Assembly: GCA_000004695.1 (NCBI GenBank)
Contig: CM000152.2
Coordinates: forward strand, 1,728,001-1,792,000
Direction: 5' to 3'
From: Dictyostelium discoideum
Taxonomy: Eukaryota
DNA length: 64,000 bases
Below, piece by piece: positions 3,085 through 43,080 of this stretch; the first letter of the stretch is position 1, and each line of letters begins with the position of its first letter. The notes below the pieces were generated by a model. It ran no database searches and was not told the origin of the DNA. It was given only the letters and a program-made list of their open reading frames with translations. The position numbers and the translations under genes were made by a program.

Positions 3085-6000
3085 ATGGGTAAAGAAACTA
3101 AAATCGATAAATTTGAAAAAAGTAAATATAATAAACGTTACAATGAACCAAATGATCCTTTAGAAATCGATTATATGAGAGGTTATCAAACAACCACACT
3201 CTCAAATATTTTACATTATGGTTTAATTATATTATCAGCAGGTAATGTATAATTTTTCATCATCATCATCATTATTATTATTATTGTCATAAAAATCAAA
3301 ATTTTAATATATTTAATAATTATTATTATTATTATTATTATTTTTATTTTTATTTTTTTTTTATTTATAGGTTTATTATTATTAGTTTATCATTGGGTAC
3401 CAAGATGGGGTATTAAAATGAGATTTAAAGAATGTAAATTAAATGATGCAAATTATGTTTATGTTAAAGCAAAAGATAAGAAATATGAACTTAGTCAAGT
3501 GAAACATGTATTAATTGGAAAGAAAGATTTAGAATTTTCAGAAAGTGAAAAGAAGGATAAATATATTGAATTCAAATTCACTCGTTTATTCTATAATGTA
3601 GAGAAAGATTTATTCATTAGACCAATTAGTAACACTGATTATCATAGAAGTAAAATCAATGAATTGGTGAAGACCGGTTTATCAATGAATAAATATCAAG
3701 AGGGTAGAGATCTTTTTGGACCCAATTTAATTAGTGTGCCATTGAAATCAATTCCATCATTGTTGTTAGACGAGATTTTACATCCATTCTTTATCTTTCA
3801 AATTTATTCAATCATTCTTTGGTGTACAGAAGATTATTATGTTTATGCAGGTGCAATTCTTTTCATTGCTTTGGTTACTGCCATTTTCACATTACGTGAG
3901 ACTCGTAATAATCTCTTGCGTTTAAATGAGATCGCCACCTATAGATGTGATGTGACAGTGTTAAGAGATGGTAAACTTCAAGTGGTATCCTCAGAGACAT
4001 TGGTTCCAGGTGATATTATCGAAATTCAAAAATCATTGGTACTTCCATGTGATTTTTGTTTATTAACTGGTACTGTAATTCTCAACGAGTCAATGTTAAC
4101 AGGTGAATCGATCCCAGTTACAAAGTATTCATTGGAGGAGTGTTCAGGTGATCAATTGTCTGTGGACCCATTGGTGAATAAACGTTGTGCAATGTCTGGT
4201 GGTACAAAGGTTGTTAAAACTCAAGCCAAAGAGAAGGATGCTAAAATCTTTGCAATGGTTACCAATACAAGTTGGTTAACTACAAAGGGTGGTTTGGTAT
4301 TGTCAATGTTGTATCCAAAGGAATCTCATTTCAAATTCTTTGAACAATCTTTGAAATTCTTGGGTGTACTTTGTTTCATTGCATTGATTGGTTTCGGTGT
4401 TTCAGTATGGAGATTAATTAAAGCAGGCGAACAATTAAGTGAGGTAGTTACCAAAGCATTGGATTTAATTACAATTGTTGTTCCACCAGCTTTACCAATG
4501 GCACAAAGTGTTGGTACAGGTTTCAGTATCGTACGTTTAAAGGCAAATAAAATCTTTTGTATTTCACCACCAAGAGTTAATATGGCAGGTAAAGTTGAAG
4601 TCTATTGTTTCGATAAAACTGGTACACTCACTGAAGATGGTTTAGATTTGTTTGGTGTATTACCATCCCATCAAGATAGTAATAATAGTGGTGGTTTTGG
4701 TACAGTAATTAAAACCGATTTAAATCGTATGACAGGTCCATTATTTTTAACAATGGCCACCTGTCATACTTTGGCTCATATCGATGAACAAGTTAGTGGT
4801 GATCCATTGGAAGAGAAGATTTTCACTGCAACAAATGCAAAGTTAAATGATAATGGTGAATTTGGTTTTTGTGCATCAATTCAATTGTCAAAAGTTGATA
4901 ATATCTCTATGGTTCATCAAGAATATCCAATCTCTACAGTGGATGTTGAAACCTCTGATCAAATTGCATTGGTTGAACGTTTCGAATTTCAATCTGCACT
5001 TCAAAGAATGAGTGTTGTAATTAGAGGTATTAGAGCAACCGATGGTTCAACTCAAAGTAGTAAAGATTTGGCAATTGTTAAAGGTTCACCAGAGATGATT
5101 AAAAAACTTTCAAATCCAACTTCAATTCCATCCGATTTTGAACATGTTCTTAGCACCTATACAAAGAAGGGTTATCGTGTATTGGGTTGTGGTTATAAAG
5201 AATGGGATCCATCAGATTCAATTGGTAAAACAAAGGATGAAATTAGATCAATGGTTGAGAGAGATTTAATGTTTTTAGGTTTCATTATTATGGAGAATAA
5301 AATTAAACCAGAGACTGCTGGTGCATTAAAGGTATTAAAGGATGCAAATATTCGTATCATTATGGTCACTGGTGATAATGTTCTAACCGCAGTTAGTGTT
5401 TCAAGAGAATGCGGTCTAGTCACTAAAGAGAAAACAATATTCTCGTCACAATTGGTTAATGATCCTGTAACTGGTAAACCAACAATGGTAGAATGGTTTG
5501 ATGTTACCTCACCTGAAGAATCAATTCCATTCACTTTGGACCCATACACTTTAACAATTAATAATGCTGGTGGTGGCAGTAATTACGATGATGAGTATAG
5601 TTTGGCTGTCACTGGTGATGTTTGGAAATATTATTATGATCAATTCAAAGCAAATGGTCAACCAACCATTTGTTTCAATCAAATCTTAAGAAAAGGTCAA
5701 GTGTTTGCACGTATGACACCAGATCAAAAACAAAATCTTATCGAGGAACTTCAAGTATTAGGACTCTATGTTGGCATGTGTGGTGATGGTGCAAATGATT
5801 GTGGTGCATTAAAAGCTGCACATGTTGGTATTTCTTTATCTCAAGCTGAGGCATCTATTGCCGCTCCATTCACTTCAACCATTACCAATGTAACTTGTAC
5901 CTATAATCTAATTAAAGAGGGTAGAGCATCATTAACAGTGTCATTCAAACTTTTCCAATTCATTGGTATGTACTCATTGATTCAATTTTGTCAAGTTATT

Positions 6001-6690
6001 CTATTGTATTTCGATGGTTCCGTATTGAATAACTATCAATATCTCTATCAAGATCTTTGGGTAATTTTCCCATTGGTAATTTTCATGGGTCGTACTGAAC
6101 CATGTAGTAAACTCTCCATCAAAAGACCATCCTCTCGTTTAATTAGTTCAACAGTTATTGGTAGTTTACTCAGTCATGTCACATTAACATTTGTTTTCCA
6201 ATTATTGGTTTACATTTTCGTACGTCGTAATTCATGGTATAAGGATTTACCCGACACAAGCTCCAATGAAAATGAACCAAGATTAGATCATTTATTGGCA
6301 TCCCTTTTCATCTATGGTAATATGCAATACTCTGTCATGTGTTTCATTTACTCTTGGGGTAAACCTTTCCTTAGACCAATTTATACCAATCGTGCATTAT
6401 TCATCTTCTTTTGTGTAACACTTACAACTTCTTCATTATTATTATTGTTGCCTGTTTCCATTAGATTCTTTGGTACAACATGGTTAATGGATTTACCAGT
6501 ACGTTGGAGAGTTGAACTCTTAATTCTCTTTATTATCAATGCTGCTCTCGCTATGGCTGCCGAATGGATTATCATTGTCTATCGTGAAATCAGATCAAAA
6601 TCAAAGAGAAAATTAAAACAAAAACAAAATTCCGATCCAAATATTATTGCAAAAAATACTGTTAATGAAAGATATACTAGTTTAAATTAA
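3085..6690 (+). CDS. P5B-type cation-transporting P-type ATPase (ATP13A2-like, kil2 family candidate), 1158 aa; exons 3085..3241 and 3371..6690
   Basis: Exon 1 from ATG 3085 ends in phase 1 before GTAATG. The 129-nt AT-rich intron ends in TATAG. Exon 2 continues in frame through the long ORF to the stop at 6690. P-type ATPase motifs are read directly: DKTGTLT, MVTGDN, GDGANDCGALK. The PPALP motif marks subtype P5B. Multiple hydrophobic membrane segments. The ORF-track Met at 3418 is internal. Confidence 0.85.
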
Positions 6691-6897: not shown

Positions 6898-7165
6898 ATG
6901 TCAAACAAAAATGATTTAAAAGAGTTGATGAAAGCTAAAACTAAAGAAAGAGAGAAGAATTTATTATCATCACAACAAACAACAAATAGTTTAAATACAT
7001 CTACTACCAATAGTAATAATGATGATGGAAAACAATTTGCAAAGTATAATAGTCAAAAACAATTATTGTGTTCTTTATGTGAAGCAAAAGTATTAAGTGA
7101 TTCAATGTGGAAAGCTCATTGTAACTCTAAAAAACATAAAGAATTACTAGAAGTTTATCGAAGAA

Positions 7166-7260
<95 letters not shown>

Positions 7261-7426
7261 GATAAAAAGAAAAGAGAATTGGAATTTTTAATTACAGAAT
7301 CACAACCTTCCAAAATAATTAAGACAACAGAAGAAGAGGAAGAGGAAGCCTTAAAAGAAGTTTCAACAATAAGTAGTTTATTTGGTGCTTATAGTGACGA
7401 AGATGATGATGATGATAATAATAATA

Positions 7427-7477
<51 letters not shown>

Positions 7478-8319
7478 TTGAAATAAATTCGAAAAATAAT
7501 AGTTTTCCAAGTGGTTTTTTTGATAATCCAGAAGAAGAAAAAAAATCAATTATAAACGATGATTCAGATTTAGAGGTTAATGATAAATTACCAAAAGGAT
7601 TCTTTGATAATGATAGTATAAGGAAGAATGAAGATATTGATAAAGAAGAAATCGATGAAATAACAGAAGAGGAATTAAAGTAAGTTTTGTTTCAAATAAA
7701 AATTAAATTTTGTTTTGAATTTAATTAATTAATAAAATTGGTTGATATAGTACTAATGCAAAAAAAAAAAAAAATAAATAAATAAAATAAAAATAAATTA
7801 ATTATTAAAATATTTACTAGTAAACAACTTGAACAATATAATAATAATATTATTGATTCCACAACTACAACTATTGTTGAAAATGAAAATGATTATATTA
7901 TTAATAACGATAACAATAATAATAATAATAATAATAATATTAATAATATTGAAGAGGTAGATGATAAAAATAGTTATAAAGAAGAAAATGTTAATAGTAA
8001 TAAAGAACAACAACAACAAGAACAAGAACAAAAGGTAGAAAAAGAAGAAAACCTAATAAAGAAAGTTGATAAAAAAATAAATGAAAATGTTTTAATTGGA
8101 CGAGTTTTGAATAATTTTGAAAAAAAGGTTTTAGAATCAAAAATTGATGAACTTGAAAATAAGAGAAAAGATTTGAAATTAATGATTCATTCAAAAAATA
8201 ATATTAATGAAAAGGAGAACAAAAAAGAAGAAAGTGATGACGATGGTGATGATGATTTTAATTTCGATGAAGATGTCCAAATGTTGGACACTAGATCAAT
8301 ATTTCAAAAAAAGAAATAA
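6898..8319 (+). CDS. ZNF830-like C2H2 zinc-finger coiled-coil protein; exons 6898..7679 and 7821..8319 (short unspliced form would stop at 7683)
   Basis: The N-terminal block FAKYNSQKQLLCSLCEAKVLSDSMWKAHCNSKKHKE matches the ZNF830 single C2H2 finger region. A poly-Q tract is encoded by (CAA)n. The stop TAA at 7681 overlaps a consensus GTAAGT donor starting at 7680. A 141-nt AT-rich intron ends ...TTTACTAG at 7820. The downstream sequence is open in the required frame (phase 2) through 8319, encoding a K/E-rich coiled-coil tail. Confidence 0.55.
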
Positions 8320-8770
8320 AATTGTAAATAATTTCTCTAAACTTTCATATTTTTTTATTATTTATTTTATTTTATTTTATTTTTGTTTTGGATTACTCAA
8401 AATTAAAAAAAATTTTAAAAGGTTTTAATCAATATAATATGGAAATAAATTAATCTTACTTTTTTTTTTTTTAATTTTTTTTTTTATCATTTTCATCTAT
8501 AGTTTTAAAGTTTTACATTGTTAAATATATAAATTTATTTATTTCTTTTTTATTATTATTTTTTTATTTTTCTGGTGGTTACTTTTTTTGGCCTTCTCGG
8601 TGTTGGTATTTATTTTAAAAATCTTGGTTGGTTAATTTCTATCATAAATTAAATAATTTTAAAAATAGGTTTTATAGGGTTATCTTTGTCTAATTAATAT
8701 CTAGATAAAATGGGGTGTTATTGTTATGGTTTCAATTCCAAAAAATAATATTAAAAAAAATATGGACATT

Positions 8771-8870
8771 NNNNNNNNNNNNNNNNNNNNNNNNNNNNNN
8801 NNNNNNNNNNNNNNNNNNNNNNNNNNNNNNNNNNNNNNNNNNNNNNNNNNNNNNNNNNNNNNNNNNNNNN
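8771..8870. other. Assembly gap (run of 100 N)
   Basis: Literal N characters are present. Confidence 0.99.
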
Positions 8871-9809
8871 TATGATGAAGATGGTTATGATGAAAATGGT
8901 TATGATAAATATGGTTATTTTTTATGTAAAAAAAACATCTATGATGAAAATGGCTATGATCAATATGGCTATAATGAATATGGTTATGATAAAGATGGTT
9001 ATGATGAAGATGGTTATGATGAAGAGGGTTATGATGAAGATGGTTATGATAAAGCTGGTTATGATAAATGTGGTTATAATGATGATGGTTATCATCAAGA
9101 TGGTTATAATGCATTAGGTTATTATGAAGATGGTTATAATATAAATGGTTATAATGAAGATGGTTATGATAAATATGGTTATAATGAAGATGGTTATGAT
9201 GAAGATGGTTATAATGAAGAGGGTTATGATAAAGATGGTTATCATATATATGGTTATAACAAATATGGTTATAATAAATATGGTTATGATAAATATGGTT
9301 ATGATAAAGATGGTTATGATAAAGACGGTTACGATGAAGATGATTATGATAAAAATGGTTATAATCCATATGGTTATGATAAAGATGGTTTTAATAAAAA
9401 TGGTTATAATAGAGATGGGGTTTATATAAAAAAAAAAAAACTTAACAAAATCACTAAAAAAAGCAAATTAGTTTTGAAATCATTAATTCCATATAAAGGT
9501 ATTCTTGCAAATAATTTAACAGATTTTAAATCAACTGAAAATGATTTCTTTTTAAATGTAGTGTCTCTTTTGTCACGTGAACGCCATATTACATTTATAT
9601 CTAGTGGTAACTTTGACAACAATTTCAACAATTGTTTGAAAATATCGCCGGAATTCTCAAAATGGAATAGTAATAAAGGTGAGGTAGAAATAAGTTCCTT
9701 TCCAACTTATGCTATAGATACAAAGGGTTCTAGAAGACTGACCTTTTATTTTTTTTCAATGAATAGTAAGTCTTTTTTATTAATTATAATTAACAATATT
9801 TTAAAATAA
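8871..9809 (+). CDS. Hexapeptide-repeat protein (about 30 tandem G-Y-D/N-x-x-G units) with a non-repetitive C-terminal tail; 5' end lost in the assembly gap
   Basis: Plus-strand frame is open from the gap through 9809. An 18-nt unit (ggttatgat gaa/aaa gatggt) is repeated in tandem from 8871 to about 9420, giving GYDEDGYDKDGY... Codons follow Dictyostelium usage (gat, ggt, tat, gaa). The minus strand is also open (HNHLYHNH), so strand assignment rests on ORF length and the unique tail. Confidence 0.4.
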   Translation, partial: YDEDGYDENGYDKYGYFLCKKNIYDENGYDQYGYNEYGYDKDGYDEDGYDEEGYDEDGYDKAGYDKCGYNDDGYHQDGYNALGYYEDGYNINGYNEDGYDKYGYNEDGYDEDGYNEEGYDKDGYHIYGYNKYGYNKYGYDKYGYDKDGYDKDGYDEDDYDKNGYNPYGYDKDGFNKNGYNRDGVYIKKKKLNKITKKSKLVLKSLIPYKGILANNLTDFKSTENDFFLNVVSLLSRERHITFISSGNFDNNFNNCLKISPEFSKWNSNKGEVEISSFPTYAIDTKGSRRLTFYFFSMNSKSFLLIIINNILK

Positions 9810-19298: not shown

Positions 19299-23183
<3,885 letters not shown>

Positions 23184-25570: not shown

Positions 25571-26173
25571 TTATTTAAAATGTTTATCAGTAGCTTCTTT
25601 AATTTTATCAAATTCTCTTAGACCTCTATAAGGTTTGGTTTCTCCTTCATCAAAACTATTATAAAAAAAAAAAAAAAGTTAGAAATTTAAAATTTGAATA
25701 AAAAAAAAAAAAAAAATTTAAAGCCAAAACTTACAAAACTAAAGATGGATAACCTGTAATATTATATTTTTTACAAATTGAGTCATCCCCTTCACAATGA
25801 ACTTGCGCCACTTTAATTTTTGAATTTTCAATGTCGCTGTTGTAATGTTGAGCTAGATTTTCAAGTACAGGTTGAAATTTTTTACAATGTCCACTCCATT
25901 TTACACCACTTTTTTAAAATTTATAATTATAAGGTTTTAAATAATTTAATAAATTAAATAATAAATTAAATAATAAATTAATAAATTAATAAATAAAAAA
26001 ATAAATAAAAAATTAACATAATTTAATTCATACAATTTAACTAACCAATTTCCATTTAGGATTAAATCTAAATTATCATTTGTAATAACAATAATTTGGG
26101 AAGGTTGGTTTTGGGAAAAGGCAACACAAAATAATAAAAAAAATAAAATAAATAAAGTAAATATTTTTTTCAT
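25571..26173 (-). CDS. Secreted single-domain PDI/thioredoxin-fold protein with SGHC motif, tandem copy 1, 132 aa; exons (minus) 26173..26034, 25908..25735, 25655..25571
   Basis: Signal peptide MKKIFTLFILFFLLFCVAFS. Thioredoxin/PDI a-domain signature ...FGVKWSGHCKKFQPVLENLAQHY...VAQVHCEGDDSICKKYNITGYPSLVFFDEG...YRG. The first active-site Cys is replaced by Ser (WSGHC rather than WCGHC). Two phase-2 introns (GTATGA and GTAAGT donors). Confidence 0.7.
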
Positions 26174-26248
26174 TCTTTTTAATTTTATTATATTGTTTTT
26201 TTTAGATTTCTAAAATTTTTTTTAAAAAACAAAAGAAAAAACCAAAGG

Positions 26249-26279
<31 letters not shown>

Positions 26280-26599
26280 ATTATTGATACTGTATAAGTT
26301 GTTAAAAAAAGTGAGTCATCTTTTTTTTCTGAAAAAAAAAAAATTATATAAAAAAAAACAATCAACAAAGACAAAAATATTTTGATTTTTTTGAAAATTC
26401 ATAAAATATTTACATCGTTCCAAGTTGTATATATCAGTGTGGTGTGTTTGAAATAATATTTTTTATTTTTTTTTTTTATTTTTTTTTTTATTTTTTTTAT
26501 TTTTTTTTTTTAATTCTTCCAAATTTCAATAAAGAATAATAAATAAATAAAAAAAAAAAAAAAAAAAATATAAGATTATGACCAAAATGAAACAATTCT

Positions 26600-27012
26600 T
26601 TATTTAAAATGTTTATCAATAGCCTCTTTAAAATTTTCAAATTGTCTTGGGCCTGTATAATGTTTGATTTGGCCTTCATTAAAACTATAAAAAAAAAAAA
26701 AAAAAGTTAGAAATTTAAAATTTAAAATATTTGAATAAAAAAAAATATATTAAAAAGTTAAAACTTACAAAACTAAAGATGGATAACCTGTAATATTATA
26801 TTTTTTACAAATTGAGTTATCCTCTTCACAATGAACTTGCGCCACTTTAACTTTTGAATTCTCATTGTCACTGTTGTAATGTTGAGCTAGATTTTCAAGT
26901 ACAGGTTGTAATTTTTTACAATGTAAACTCCATGCTGCACCACTTTTTTAAAAATTTATAATTATAAGATTTTAAATAATTCAATAGATTAAAAATAAAT
27001 TAATTAAAAATT

Positions 27013-27052
<40 letters not shown>

Positions 27053-27268
27053 TAAATAAAATAAATTAATTAATAAAAAAAACAATAAATTAATAAATAA
27101 AAAAATAAATTAAAAATTAACATAAATTAATACATACAATTTAACTAACCAATTTCCGGTTAAGAGTAAATCTAAATTTTCATTTGTAATAACGATTATT
27201 TTGGAAGGTTGGTTTTGGGAAAAAGCAACACAAAATAATAAAAAAAATAAAGTAAATATTTTTTGCAT
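26600..27268 (-). CDS. Secreted PDI/thioredoxin-fold protein with S-x-x-C motif (WSLHC), tandem copy 2, 129 aa; exons (minus) 27268..27138, 26942..26769, 26684..26600
   Basis: Paralog of copy 1 with identical exon structure (exon 2 is 174 nt, exon 3 is 85 nt). MQKIFTLFFLLFCVAFS signal peptide. AAWSLHCKKLQPVLENLAQHYNSDNENSKVKVAQVHCEEDNSICKKYNITGYPSLV. Confidence 0.7.
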
Positions 27269-27343
27269 TGTTTTTAATTTTATTATATTGTTTTTTTTAG
27301 ATTTCTAAAATTTTTTCTAAAAAACAAAAGAAAAAACCAAAGG

Positions 27344-27388
<45 letters not shown>

Positions 27389-27614
27389 ATTATTGATTAA
27401 TACTTTGTAAGTTGTCAGAAAAAGTGAGTCATCTTTTTTTTTTTTTCTGAAAAAAAAAAAAAAAAAAAAAAAAAAACCATAACAAAGAAAAAACTATTTT
27501 TGATTTTTTTGAAACTACATAATATTTACATCGTTCCAAGTTGCATATATCAGTGTGGTGTGTTTGAAATAATATTTTTTATTTTTTTTTTTTTATTTCT
27601 TTATTTTTTTTTTT

Positions 27615-28344
27615 TTAATTCTCCCAAATTTCAATAAAGAGATATGCACTTTCAAATTTATAATAATAAATAAATATTTTTTTTTTAAAAAAAAAATATA
27701 TAAGATTATGACTAAAACGAAACAATTCTTTATTTAAATGTTTATCAATAGCCTCTTTAAAATTTTCAAATAGTCTTGGGCCTCTATAATGTTTGATTTC
27801 GCCTTCATCAAAACTGAAAAAAAAAAAAATATAGAAAAAGTTAAAACTTACAAAACTAAAGATGGATAACCTATAATATTATATTTTATACAAATTGATT
27901 CATACTCTTCACAATGAACTTGCGCCACTTTAACTTTTGAATTCTCATTATCACTGTTGTAATGTTGAGCTAGATTTTCAAGTACAGGTTGTAATTTTTT
28001 ACAATGTCCACTCCATCCTGCACCACTTTTTTAAAAATTTATAATTATAAGGTTTTAAATAATTCAATAAATTAAAATAAATAAAAAAAACAAAAGATTA
28101 ATAAATGAATAAATAATTAAATAATTAAATAAATTAATAAATAAAAAAACAATAAATTAATAAATAAAAAAATAAATTAAAAATTAACATAATTTTAGAC
28201 ATACAATTTAACTAACCAATTTCCGTTTAAGATTAAATCTAAATTATCATTTGTAATAACAATTATATTGGAAGGTTGGTTTTGGGAAAAAGCAACACAA
28301 AGTAACAAAAAAAATAAAATAAATAAAGTAAATATTTTTTTAAT
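27615..28344 (-). pseudogene. Tandem copy 3 of the PDI/thioredoxin-fold gene, apparently degenerate: start codon changed (ATT where copies 1 and 2 have ATG) and a 1-nt deletion in the last codons causes a frameshifted extended tail
   Basis: Exons at 28344..28205, 28025..27852 and 27813..27730 are collinear with copies 1 and 2 (GAGWSGHCKKLQ... conserved). Plus-strand ttatttaaatg at 27730 lacks one a relative to ttatttaaaatg in copies 1 and 2, so HFK-stop becomes HLNKELFRFS... with the stop at 27615. The codon aligned to the initiator reads att. Confidence 0.5.
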
Positions 28345-40230: not shown

Positions 40231-41370
40231 ATGGATGGATTTGAAGATCAAGAATTGGTTTCAATGGAGTTATTACAGATGGTATTATTAAAAAATTTTT
40301 TTTTTTTTATTAAAAAATTAAATAAATAAATAAATAAATAAATAAAACTAACAGTTATTATTATTATTTTATTATCTTTTATTATTATTATTATTATTTA
40401 ATATTAAATAGCAAAATGAATCATATTGGTTAATTCAAAGAGAAGTACCAACAGTTTGTAAAAGGGTTAGAACCATTGTAAATGTGAGTTTATAATTCAT
40501 TCATTCATTCATTCATTCATTCATTCATTGATTCATTCATTCATTCATTCATTCATTCATTCATTCATTGATTCATTCATTCATTCATTCATTCATTCAT
40601 TCATTGATTCATTCATTCATTCATTCATTCATTCATTCATTCATTGATTCATTCATTCATTCATTCATTCATTCATTCATTCATTCATTCATTCATTCAT
40701 TCATTCATTCATTCATTCATTCATTCATTCATTCATTCATTCATTCATTCATTCATTCATTCATTGATTTATTCATTCATTAATTCATTGATTTATTCAT
40801 TCATTAATTAATTTAAATATACTAATGTTTTTATATTTACTATAATTTTTTTTTTATTTTTTTATTTTTTTTTAGAAATGTTTAGAGTTATTACACCCAA
40901 TCGATCGAACTGAAGAAGATAAGGAAAATATAGATGAAGAAGATAAAAGTAAAAATAAAAAGAATGAGAATTTAAATAAAAATCAAGAGCCAGAGGAAGA
41001 GGATAATGAGGTGAATGAATTATTTGATATATTAAAATTTAATGAGGAAGATTCTAAAAAAGTTGGAACTGAGAAATTTGAAACTCTAGAGTATGTATGA
41101 ACTTTAATAATATTGGATTGGATGCAATAATTTTATTTTTTTTTTTAAAAAAAAAAAAAATAATAATATATACAAAATAATAATTTTGATAAATTTATAC
41201 AGAGGAAGTAGAGGTGTTTTAAAGTTAAATGGTTGGTTAGTAAATTCAAATGATCTACATATTAAAACAAAGAGTAAAACAAATAATCCAGTCATGTATA
41301 AAGATACTATTTCAAAATCATCACCTTGGAGATTAAATCAAGTATGTAATTATTTCTTTTTTTTGTAATC

Positions 41371-42751: not shown

Positions 42752-43080
42752 ATCACCAAATATGTCAACTTTAGTGGAAGAAGATTTTAATACCAACCCA
42801 CCTGATCAATATTCAAAGAAAACTTAGTAAGTTTTATTTTTATTTTATTTTTTTTTGTTTTTAAAAATTTTCTATTAACATTTTTTTATTTATTTTTTCA
42901 TTTTCCTTTTTCAGTCAAATGAATAAGCAAGGTAGTGTCCAATGGGTTACAGTAATAGAGCACAGTGAATCTAGAATTCCAGTTAAAAAATTCTCTGATA
43001 CATTTGCATTGATGACAAGCGCATATGATAAATTGGCAGATTTAAGTGAAAAGTTTATGGTCTTATCAAATACAAGCTAA
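40231..43080 (+). CDS. Rogdi/Rav2-family protein (RAVE-complex-like) with large N/G/H/Q-rich low-complexity insertion, about 636 aa; exons 40231..40281, 40412..40483, 40876..41090, 41203..41341, 41463..41691, 41788..42826, 42915..43080
   Basis: Seven-exon model with all phases consistent (1911 nt). The Rogdi-like blocks are DQELVSMELLQ...SYWLIQREVPTVCKRVRTIVNKCLELL (compare Rogdi [23 protein letters not shown]) and GVLKLNGWLVNSNDLHIKTK...SSPWRLNQIQNAYNHLQFV (compare [20 protein letters not shown]...KQWKLQQIQDARNHV). An alternative in-frame acceptor exists at 41806. The exon 1 donor GTATTA is weak. The stop TAG of the long ORF overlaps the GTAAGT donor before the last exon. Confidence 0.5.
40494..40796. 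repeat. (TCAT)n / (ATTC)n tetranucleotide microsatellite, about 300 bp, inside intron 2 of the Rogdi-like gene
   Basis: cattcattcatt run with a periodic cattgattcatt variant unit. Confidence 0.95.

Follow-up and report, generated by a model that had tools for sequence, protein, structure and literature searches.

A stop codon within the 5' splice site of a ZNF830-like gene of Dictyostelium discoideum is most probably the by-product of an ordinary, conserved phase-2 intron

Introns whose first bases complete a stop codon have been described in Yarrowia lipolytica, where phase-2 introns acquire an in-frame stop through the donor hexamers GTGAGT and GTAAGT (Mekouar et al. 2010, PMC2911113). In that genome 209 + 11 such introns were counted and linked to the decay of intron-retaining transcripts, so that the phenomenon counts as a known feature of whole genomes (PMC2911113). 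A retained intron which leads to an early stop and to an altered gene output is also reported for the autoregulation of Chtop (PMC5175361) and for KLRK1 NKG2D-TR (bioRxiv 10.64898/2026.08.21.746301), and there both retention and regulation are shown experimentally. In contrast, the locus presented here displays only the universal geometry of the donor, and the comparative evidence argues against regulation. [quoted passage not shown] In D. discoideum, introns consist of 89 % AT and are 143 nt long on average, and ACTAAT is their most frequent branch motif (Irimia and Roy 2008, PMC2483917).

The locus is part of a window of 64,000 nucleotides, the whole stretch of D. discoideum DNA which was analysed. 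It resembles the Yarrowia introns (PMC2911113) in that a phase-2 donor puts a TGA or TAA in frame directly after the exon; it differs from them in that the organism is a dictyostelid, the hexamer is GTAAGT instead of GTGAGT, and the case is known from sequence alone. A hand-built model of the ZNF830-like gene on the plus strand comprises two exons separated by one intron in phase 2 (Table 1). Bases 7678-7685 read AAGTAAGT. The TAA corresponds to bases 2-4 of GTAAGT and a phase-2 intron with this donor is read as xxG TAA if it is not spliced, in the ZNF830-like gene as aaG TAA. A stop within the donor is therefore certain as soon as phase 2 and a GTAAGT donor coincide, and nothing beyond chance has to be explained. 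According to the list of open reading frames, the unspliced frame 6898..7683 encodes 261 aa and is closed by this TAA. All coordinates given by the first-pass annotation for the motif aagTAAgt and for the end of the 261-aa frame at 7683 hold. Its further statement that the donor at 7680 and the acceptor at 7820 keep the frame up to 8319 was confirmed as well: the joined segments 6898-7679 and 7821-8319 have 1281 nt, remain in frame and encode 426 aa, the codon split by the intron being AA/T (Asn).

Table 1 Positions of the splice signals, exons and introns discussed in the text and accessions of the dictyostelid orthologues (a slash marks the exon-intron boundary)
Feature	Position or accession	Strand	Characteristics
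Exon 1, ZNF830-like gene	6898..7679	+	ATG start; the last 2 nt (AA) begin the split codon
5' splice site GTAAGT, ZNF830-like gene	7680..7685	+	TAA 7681-7683 in frame through phase 2
GT-AG intron, phase 2, ZNF830-like gene	7680..7820	+	141 nt (3n), 10.6 % GC
Branch-point-like motif ACTAAT, best candidate	7752..7757	+	AG-free up to the acceptor
3' splice site TTTACTAG	7813..7820	+	read from the sequence
Exon 2, ZNF830-like gene	7821..8319	+	1 nt of the split codon, 165 codons, TAA
Phase-2 donor TA/GTAAGT of the last Rogdi-like intron	42825..42832	+	sequence and gene model
Last Rogdi-like intron, GTAAGT...TTTTTCAG	42827..42914	+	88 nt, 11.4 % GC
Last Rogdi-like exon	42915..43080	+	55 residues with the split codon counted in, closed by TAA; in-frame join
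Phase-2 donor ttaaa/GTAAGT, CBF/Mak21-like gene	22134..22139	-	in-frame TAA; gene model
Second phase-2 GTAAGT donor, CBF/Mak21-like gene	21465..21470	-	gene model
Phase-2 donor tt/GTAAGT, thioredoxin-like copy	25729..25734	-	splits the thioredoxin domain
Phase-2 donors tt/GTAAGT, paralogous thioredoxin-like copies	26763-26768 and 27846-27851	-	
Orthologue, Tieghemostelium lacteum	KYR01963		276 aa
Orthologue, Heterostelium album	PPL_05910		347 aa
Orthologue, Acytostelium subglobosum	XP_012757724		347 aa

The splice signals of the ZNF830-like intron (GTAAGT, ACTAAT and the first AG) are of consensus strength. With 89.4 % AT, 141 nt and an ACTAAT motif, the intron shows no notable difference from the typical intron of D. 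discoideum (PMC2483917), and its GC content of 10.6 % contrasts with 25 % in exon 1 and 21 % in exon 2. Within the intron AG is found exclusively at 7683, 7749 and 7819, and the acceptor is the first AG after ACTAAT. This motif is located about 63 nt from the acceptor, and the true branch point could be a closer TTAAT-like site. If the intron were retained, it would bring three in-frame stops into the message. As its length is a multiple of three, only these stops bar read-through in the correct frame. Their presence fits the idea that 3n introns need stops, but a sequence with 89 % AT would be expected to produce them by chance as well. The intron also contains seven AATAAA hexamers. Alternative polyadenylation at these sites was considered and rejected, since the hexamers go back to an (AAATA)-like repeat in a sequence of 89 % AT and are present in every such AT-rich intron.

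The same arrangement had been reported for a Rogdi-like gene at 42825..42832, and sequence (TAGTAAGT) and gene model agree on this recurrence. The hand-built model of this gene has six introns with the phases 0, 0, 2, 0, 1 and 2. At the last donor the unspliced frame first meets a TAG formed by the exonic TA and the intronic G, and the TAA follows directly. The protein is recognized by the Pfam model Rogdi_lz with 40.3 bits (gathering cut-off 29.4) over profile positions 1-221 of 295 and matches human Rogdi (5xqi) weakly. No alignment of the last exon to either Pfam Rogdi_lz or human Rogdi was obtained; its status derives from frame continuity only, the probability that such a frame stays open by chance being about 0.008 as calculated from composition. 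For the Rogdi-like donor the same reasoning applies as for the ZNF830-like one. A (CATT)n microsatellite about 270 nt long (40498-40765), interspersed with some GATT units, takes up most of intron 2 in the Rogdi-like gene.

Stops within donors are frequent in the window. At least seven introns are of this type: a CBF/Mak21-like gene contributes two, thioredoxin-like genes contribute three, and the ZNF830-like and Rogdi-like genes one each. Among the 11 introns of three hand-built gene models there are four. The CBF/Mak21-like gene, which is encoded by the minus strand, is interrupted by four introns (phases 1, 2, 2 and 0), all with GTAAGT donors; the donor at 22139 even shares the string ATTAAAGTAAGTTT with the ZNF830-like donor. 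Both phase-2 introns are located upstream of the Pfam CBF domain, which comprises aa 523-679. A further donor of this gene at 20928 (-) had been assigned to phase 2 by an ORF-based approach and was rejected, as the manual model places it in phase 0 and lets the next exon begin at 20849. The wrong phase is explained by the preceding intron: most of its 436 nt are taken up by a pure (AT)n stretch (about 330 nt, 21073-21402), which is read as an open frame (IYIY...).

The thioredoxin-like genes are three tandem paralogues (25600-28050, minus strand) with a WSGHCK or WSLHCK motif and nearly identical 59-codon exons ending with tt/GTAAGT. In the two copies scanned (donors at 25734 and 26768) Pfam Thioredoxin aligns across the splice junction with E values of 2e-15 and 3e-17, respectively; the alignment covers residues 5-82 and the junction lies at residue 59/60. 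A product ending at the donor would therefore consist of half a fold. In the third copy (donor at 27851) the spliced frame is devoid of the FFDEGETKPYRG segment and runs into junk, and this may be a decaying copy. A heuristic scan of the window revealed that all candidate introns (28/28), whatever their phase, would lead to an in-frame stop within 20 codons if retained. Such a result is expected for introns with about 89 % AT.

Exon 2 has the properties of coding sequence. Its frame is open for 165 codons, for which the composition (21 % GC) gives a chance of about 2.6e-9, and none of 200,000 shuffled versions stayed open; the two other frames contain 11 and 49 stops. The GC content by codon position (0.40/0.10/0.13) follows a pattern like that of exon 1 (0.42/0.22/0.11). 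The frame opens at the acceptor without an initiator; among the listed start codons, the first one in frame is a TTG at 8107. In the encoded peptide a poly-N linker precedes a long helix and an acidic tail, and FDEDVQMLDTRS is located near the C-terminus. AlphaFold2, applied to exon 2 alone, predicts one long helix for residues 57-136 (pLDDT 82-95 over about 61-130) flanked by a disordered poly-N segment and the acidic tail. The description of the 166 exon residues as coiled-coil-like is supported by this predicted helix.

The relationship of exon 2 to other dictyostelid proteins was analysed with a profile built from the C-terminal halves of the orthologues in Heterostelium, Acytostelium and Tieghemostelium and with a shuffle control. 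Exon 2 reached 51.6 bits in comparison to 30.0 +/- 4.0 bits for composition-preserving shuffles (maximum 47.8), none of the 3000 shuffles attained its score, and the alignment runs collinearly through almost the entire profile. Taken by itself, the Heterostelium orthologue gave no significant BLASTP match to exon 2; significance required the profile of three sequences. Exon 2 is genuine coding sequence and homologous to the C-terminal halves of the three dictyostelid orthologues. For the ZNF830-like gene, the conservation of the downstream exon in other dictyostelids, which the first-pass annotation had named as a check, is thereby established.

ZNF830/CCDC16 (Omcg1) is a family of spliceosome-associated zinc-finger proteins. 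The human protein belongs to the XAB2/intron-binding complex and binds PPIL2 (PMC6315705). With this family the window protein shares an N-terminal U1/JAZ-type C2H2 finger in the context AKYNxxGQLxCxLC...W..H..SK.HK as well as a repeated LPxGFFD and a helical region after it; the parts that follow resemble the acidic tract and the short C-terminal motif of the family. The Pfam model zf-C2H2_jaz matches aa 58-81 with 23.1 bits, just above the cut-off of 22.6. A ZNF830 family profile made of 117 proteins scores the protein with 65-67 bits, and hhalign gives a probability of 98.9 % over aa 46-241 including the finger and the GFFD motifs. FPSGFFDNP and LPKGFFDND align with the invariant P-G-F-F-D-D columns of the family (the LPEGFFDDP motif which opens the ZNF380_CC region). 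In contrast to ZNF830/CCDC16, the C-terminal half is strongly diverged, ZNF380_CC is undetected, long poly-Q and poly-N inserts are present, and the nearly invariant W and K of LDWRSK are absent, the window protein reading LDTRS. Pfam ZNF380_CC (PF23406) did not match the C-terminal half even at E <= 10, no PF23406 match is recorded for the dictyostelid orthologues either, and past residue 241 the metazoan ZNF830 profile produced no significant alignment.

A weak collinear match (hhalign E = 0.008, probability 5 %) connects the last 50 residues or so with the C-terminus of metazoan ZNF830, pairing KIDELENKRKDLK...DDDFNFDEDVQMLDTRS with the family pattern rV..Le.Kke...acidic...FDEFLDWRS at the extreme C-terminus. 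The acidic tract and motif of the window protein are DDDGDDDFNFDEDVQMLDTRSIF, a T replacing the W of FDEFLDWRSK; the corresponding motif is LFKWGSK in Heterostelium and LFQWGSK in Acytostelium. The homology of the C-terminal part is based on the dictyostelid orthologues and on this weak hhalign match, since the metazoan ZNF380_CC model does not match. Judged by these alignments, the name ZNF830-like, as assigned in the first-pass annotation, is justified for the N-terminal two thirds (65-67 bits, hhalign 98.9 %), whereas its extension to the C-terminal part has to be reduced to a likeness of architecture.

Searches of other collections added little. The PDB was found by sequence to contain other U1-type fingers but no ZNF830 relative. 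Neither the exact 426-aa nor the exact 261-aa product occurs in a collection of 15 billion proteins, and consequently the splice junction receives no support from an annotated model or a transcript-derived ORF. No relative with more than 53 % identity was present in this collection, though it contains orthologues from three other dictyostelid genera; the proteome of the source species itself appears to be missing from the protein libraries searched. Exon 1 holds a perfect (CAA)27 poly-Q tract (7180-7260) and an (AAT)14 poly-N tract (7432-7473). Because of these tracts the word-index homology searches with the full and with the low-complexity-masked protein were swamped by Q/N/K/E-rich candidates and yielded nothing useful.

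Orthologues were obtained by a full HMMER scan with the 261-aa ORF, and the genomic loci of the matches were then exon-mapped (Table 1). The Heterostelium intron (...EKAL ga/GTATGT...TGTAG/t) has 63 nt, the Acytostelium intron (...EEEL ag/GTATGT...AATAG/t) 73 nt, and both share the alignment column and phase 2 with the window intron. Around the junction, with the residue of the split codon between slashes, the proteins read TEEEL/N/KQLEQYNNNI in the window, REEEL/S/AGMKEYDEAI in Acytostelium and NEKAL/D/DGLREFDDAI in Heterostelium. As position and phase are common to three genera, the intron predates the divergence of these genera. With GTATGT donors no stop arises within the donor, and on retention the first in-frame stops would appear at codon 16 (Heterostelium) and codon 14 (Acytostelium). 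The Tieghemostelium gene is an uninterrupted ORF of 831 nt with finger, C-terminal helix and acidic tail; since it has no intron, there is no splice choice in this organism. The downstream exon and the intron are thus kept, but the stop in the donor is not.

Some further features of these loci were observed. The Tieghemostelium orthologue (locus L002, 2001-2831) is annotated as a "RING zinc finger-containing protein", its recorded domains being only JAZ/U1-type C2H2 fingers. It contains neither GFFD motifs nor introns, which suggests a shortened, possibly retro-processed copy. An extra intron after ...AKY in the zinc-finger region is common to the orthologues of Heterostelium (L001) and Acytostelium (L003) and absent from the window gene. 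A folate-carrier/MFS gene is located downstream of both of these loci and was not seen downstream in the window. There, a 100-N assembly gap (8771-8870) lies inside the highly repetitive ORF 8715-9809 (+) with GYDEDGYDK-like units, the opposite strand of which reads as H/Y/N repeats. Directly upstream of the ZNF830-like gene an intron-free ORF of 1090 aa (3418-6690, +) carries the P-type ATPase hallmarks DKTGTLT and GDGANDCGALK and looks like a P5-type pump.

According to the first-pass annotation, a single splice choice in the ZNF830-like as well as in the Rogdi-like gene toggles between a short and a long isoform. In such a case of regulated intron retention, splicing would give the 426-aa protein and retention a functional protein of 261 aa with the finger and without the C-terminal helix, and the donor stop would set the end of the short isoform. 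The short ORF is indeed intact and includes the zinc finger and both GFFD motifs; a truncated protein keeping them could in principle be formed, which is a point against full certainty. However, the donor stop arises automatically and recurs in no fewer than five other introns of the window, some of them inside globular domains, and truncation makes no sense for a thioredoxin fold or for introns upstream of the CBF/Mak21 domain. Furthermore, the orthologous introns start with GTATGT and have no donor stop, one orthologue is intronless, the C-terminal half is kept across dictyostelids, and the splice sites are of consensus strength, whereas weak sites go along with retained introns (PMC2397502). 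The toggle was therefore not upheld, and regulated retention is regarded as very unlikely. A more radical separation of the two parts would place the true end of the gene at 7683 and treat 7821-8319 as an independent or spurious ORF. The metazoan ZNF830 profiles, which cease at residue 241, and the undetected Pfam ZNF380_CC would agree with this. It has next to no probability and is effectively refuted already by a frame which opens at the acceptor without initiator and continues over 165 codons (chance about 3e-9), and by a peptide that is homologous to, and collinear with, the C-terminal part of orthologues which resemble exon 1 in their N-terminal part; one of these orthologues has both halves in an intronless gene.

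Selection might instead act on the donor stop as a fail-safe, by which unspliced transcripts end at once and are cleared by nonsense-mediated decay; for a spliceosome-associated ZNF830-like protein, autoregulatory feedback could result. Such constraints were proposed for Yarrowia, where the consensus sequences of donor, branch site and acceptor supply most of the in-frame stops (PMC2911113). The 141-nt intron is a 3n intron in which read-through is barred by nothing but an in-frame stop, three of which are present, and human ZNF830 is found in the XAB2/intron-binding complex and binds PPIL2 (PMC6315705). On the other hand, a fail-safe would be a genome-wide property with nothing specific to the ZNF830-like gene, no selection is needed for introns with about 89 % AT to give a stop within 20 codons whatever the frame, the orthologues have not kept the donor stop, and the literature yielded nothing specific on nonsense-mediated decay in this organism. 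Selection of this kind is considered very unlikely. In the autoregulatory variant, the putative spliceosome-associated ZNF830-like factor would retain its own single 3n intron when splicing capacity is low, and the donor TAA would then produce either a decay substrate or a finger-only competitor of 261 aa for the full-length protein; for this variant we see a very small chance.

The evidence points with high probability to an ordinary, conserved phase-2 GT-AG intron, from whose properties we infer constitutive splicing. The stop in the donor would then be a geometric by-product without a signal of its own. The functional mRNA would be the spliced form giving the 426-aa protein, with the predicted order U1/JAZ-type C2H2 finger, two xPxGFFDN motifs, long helix, acidic tail and short C-terminal motif. 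Occasional retention would lead to an immediate stop, as it would lead to a stop within 20 codons in the other AT-rich introns of the window. Intron-retaining transcripts, whose fate we infer likewise, most likely represent noise of the splicing process, and nonsense-mediated decay may remove them.

For scans of genomic sequence these results imply some caution. A stop overlapping a GTAAGT or GTGAGT donor is to be expected at every phase-2 intron so built, and it should not by itself count as evidence for alternative isoforms. The link of ZNF830 to the spliceosome makes a self-regulating splice event an attractive speculation, which nothing found here supports; if it were true, autoregulation would be a modest addition to the known feedback loops of splicing factors. 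As by-products, the analysis provides a verified two-exon model of the ZNF830-like gene and an intron position which is older than the split of several dictyostelid genera.
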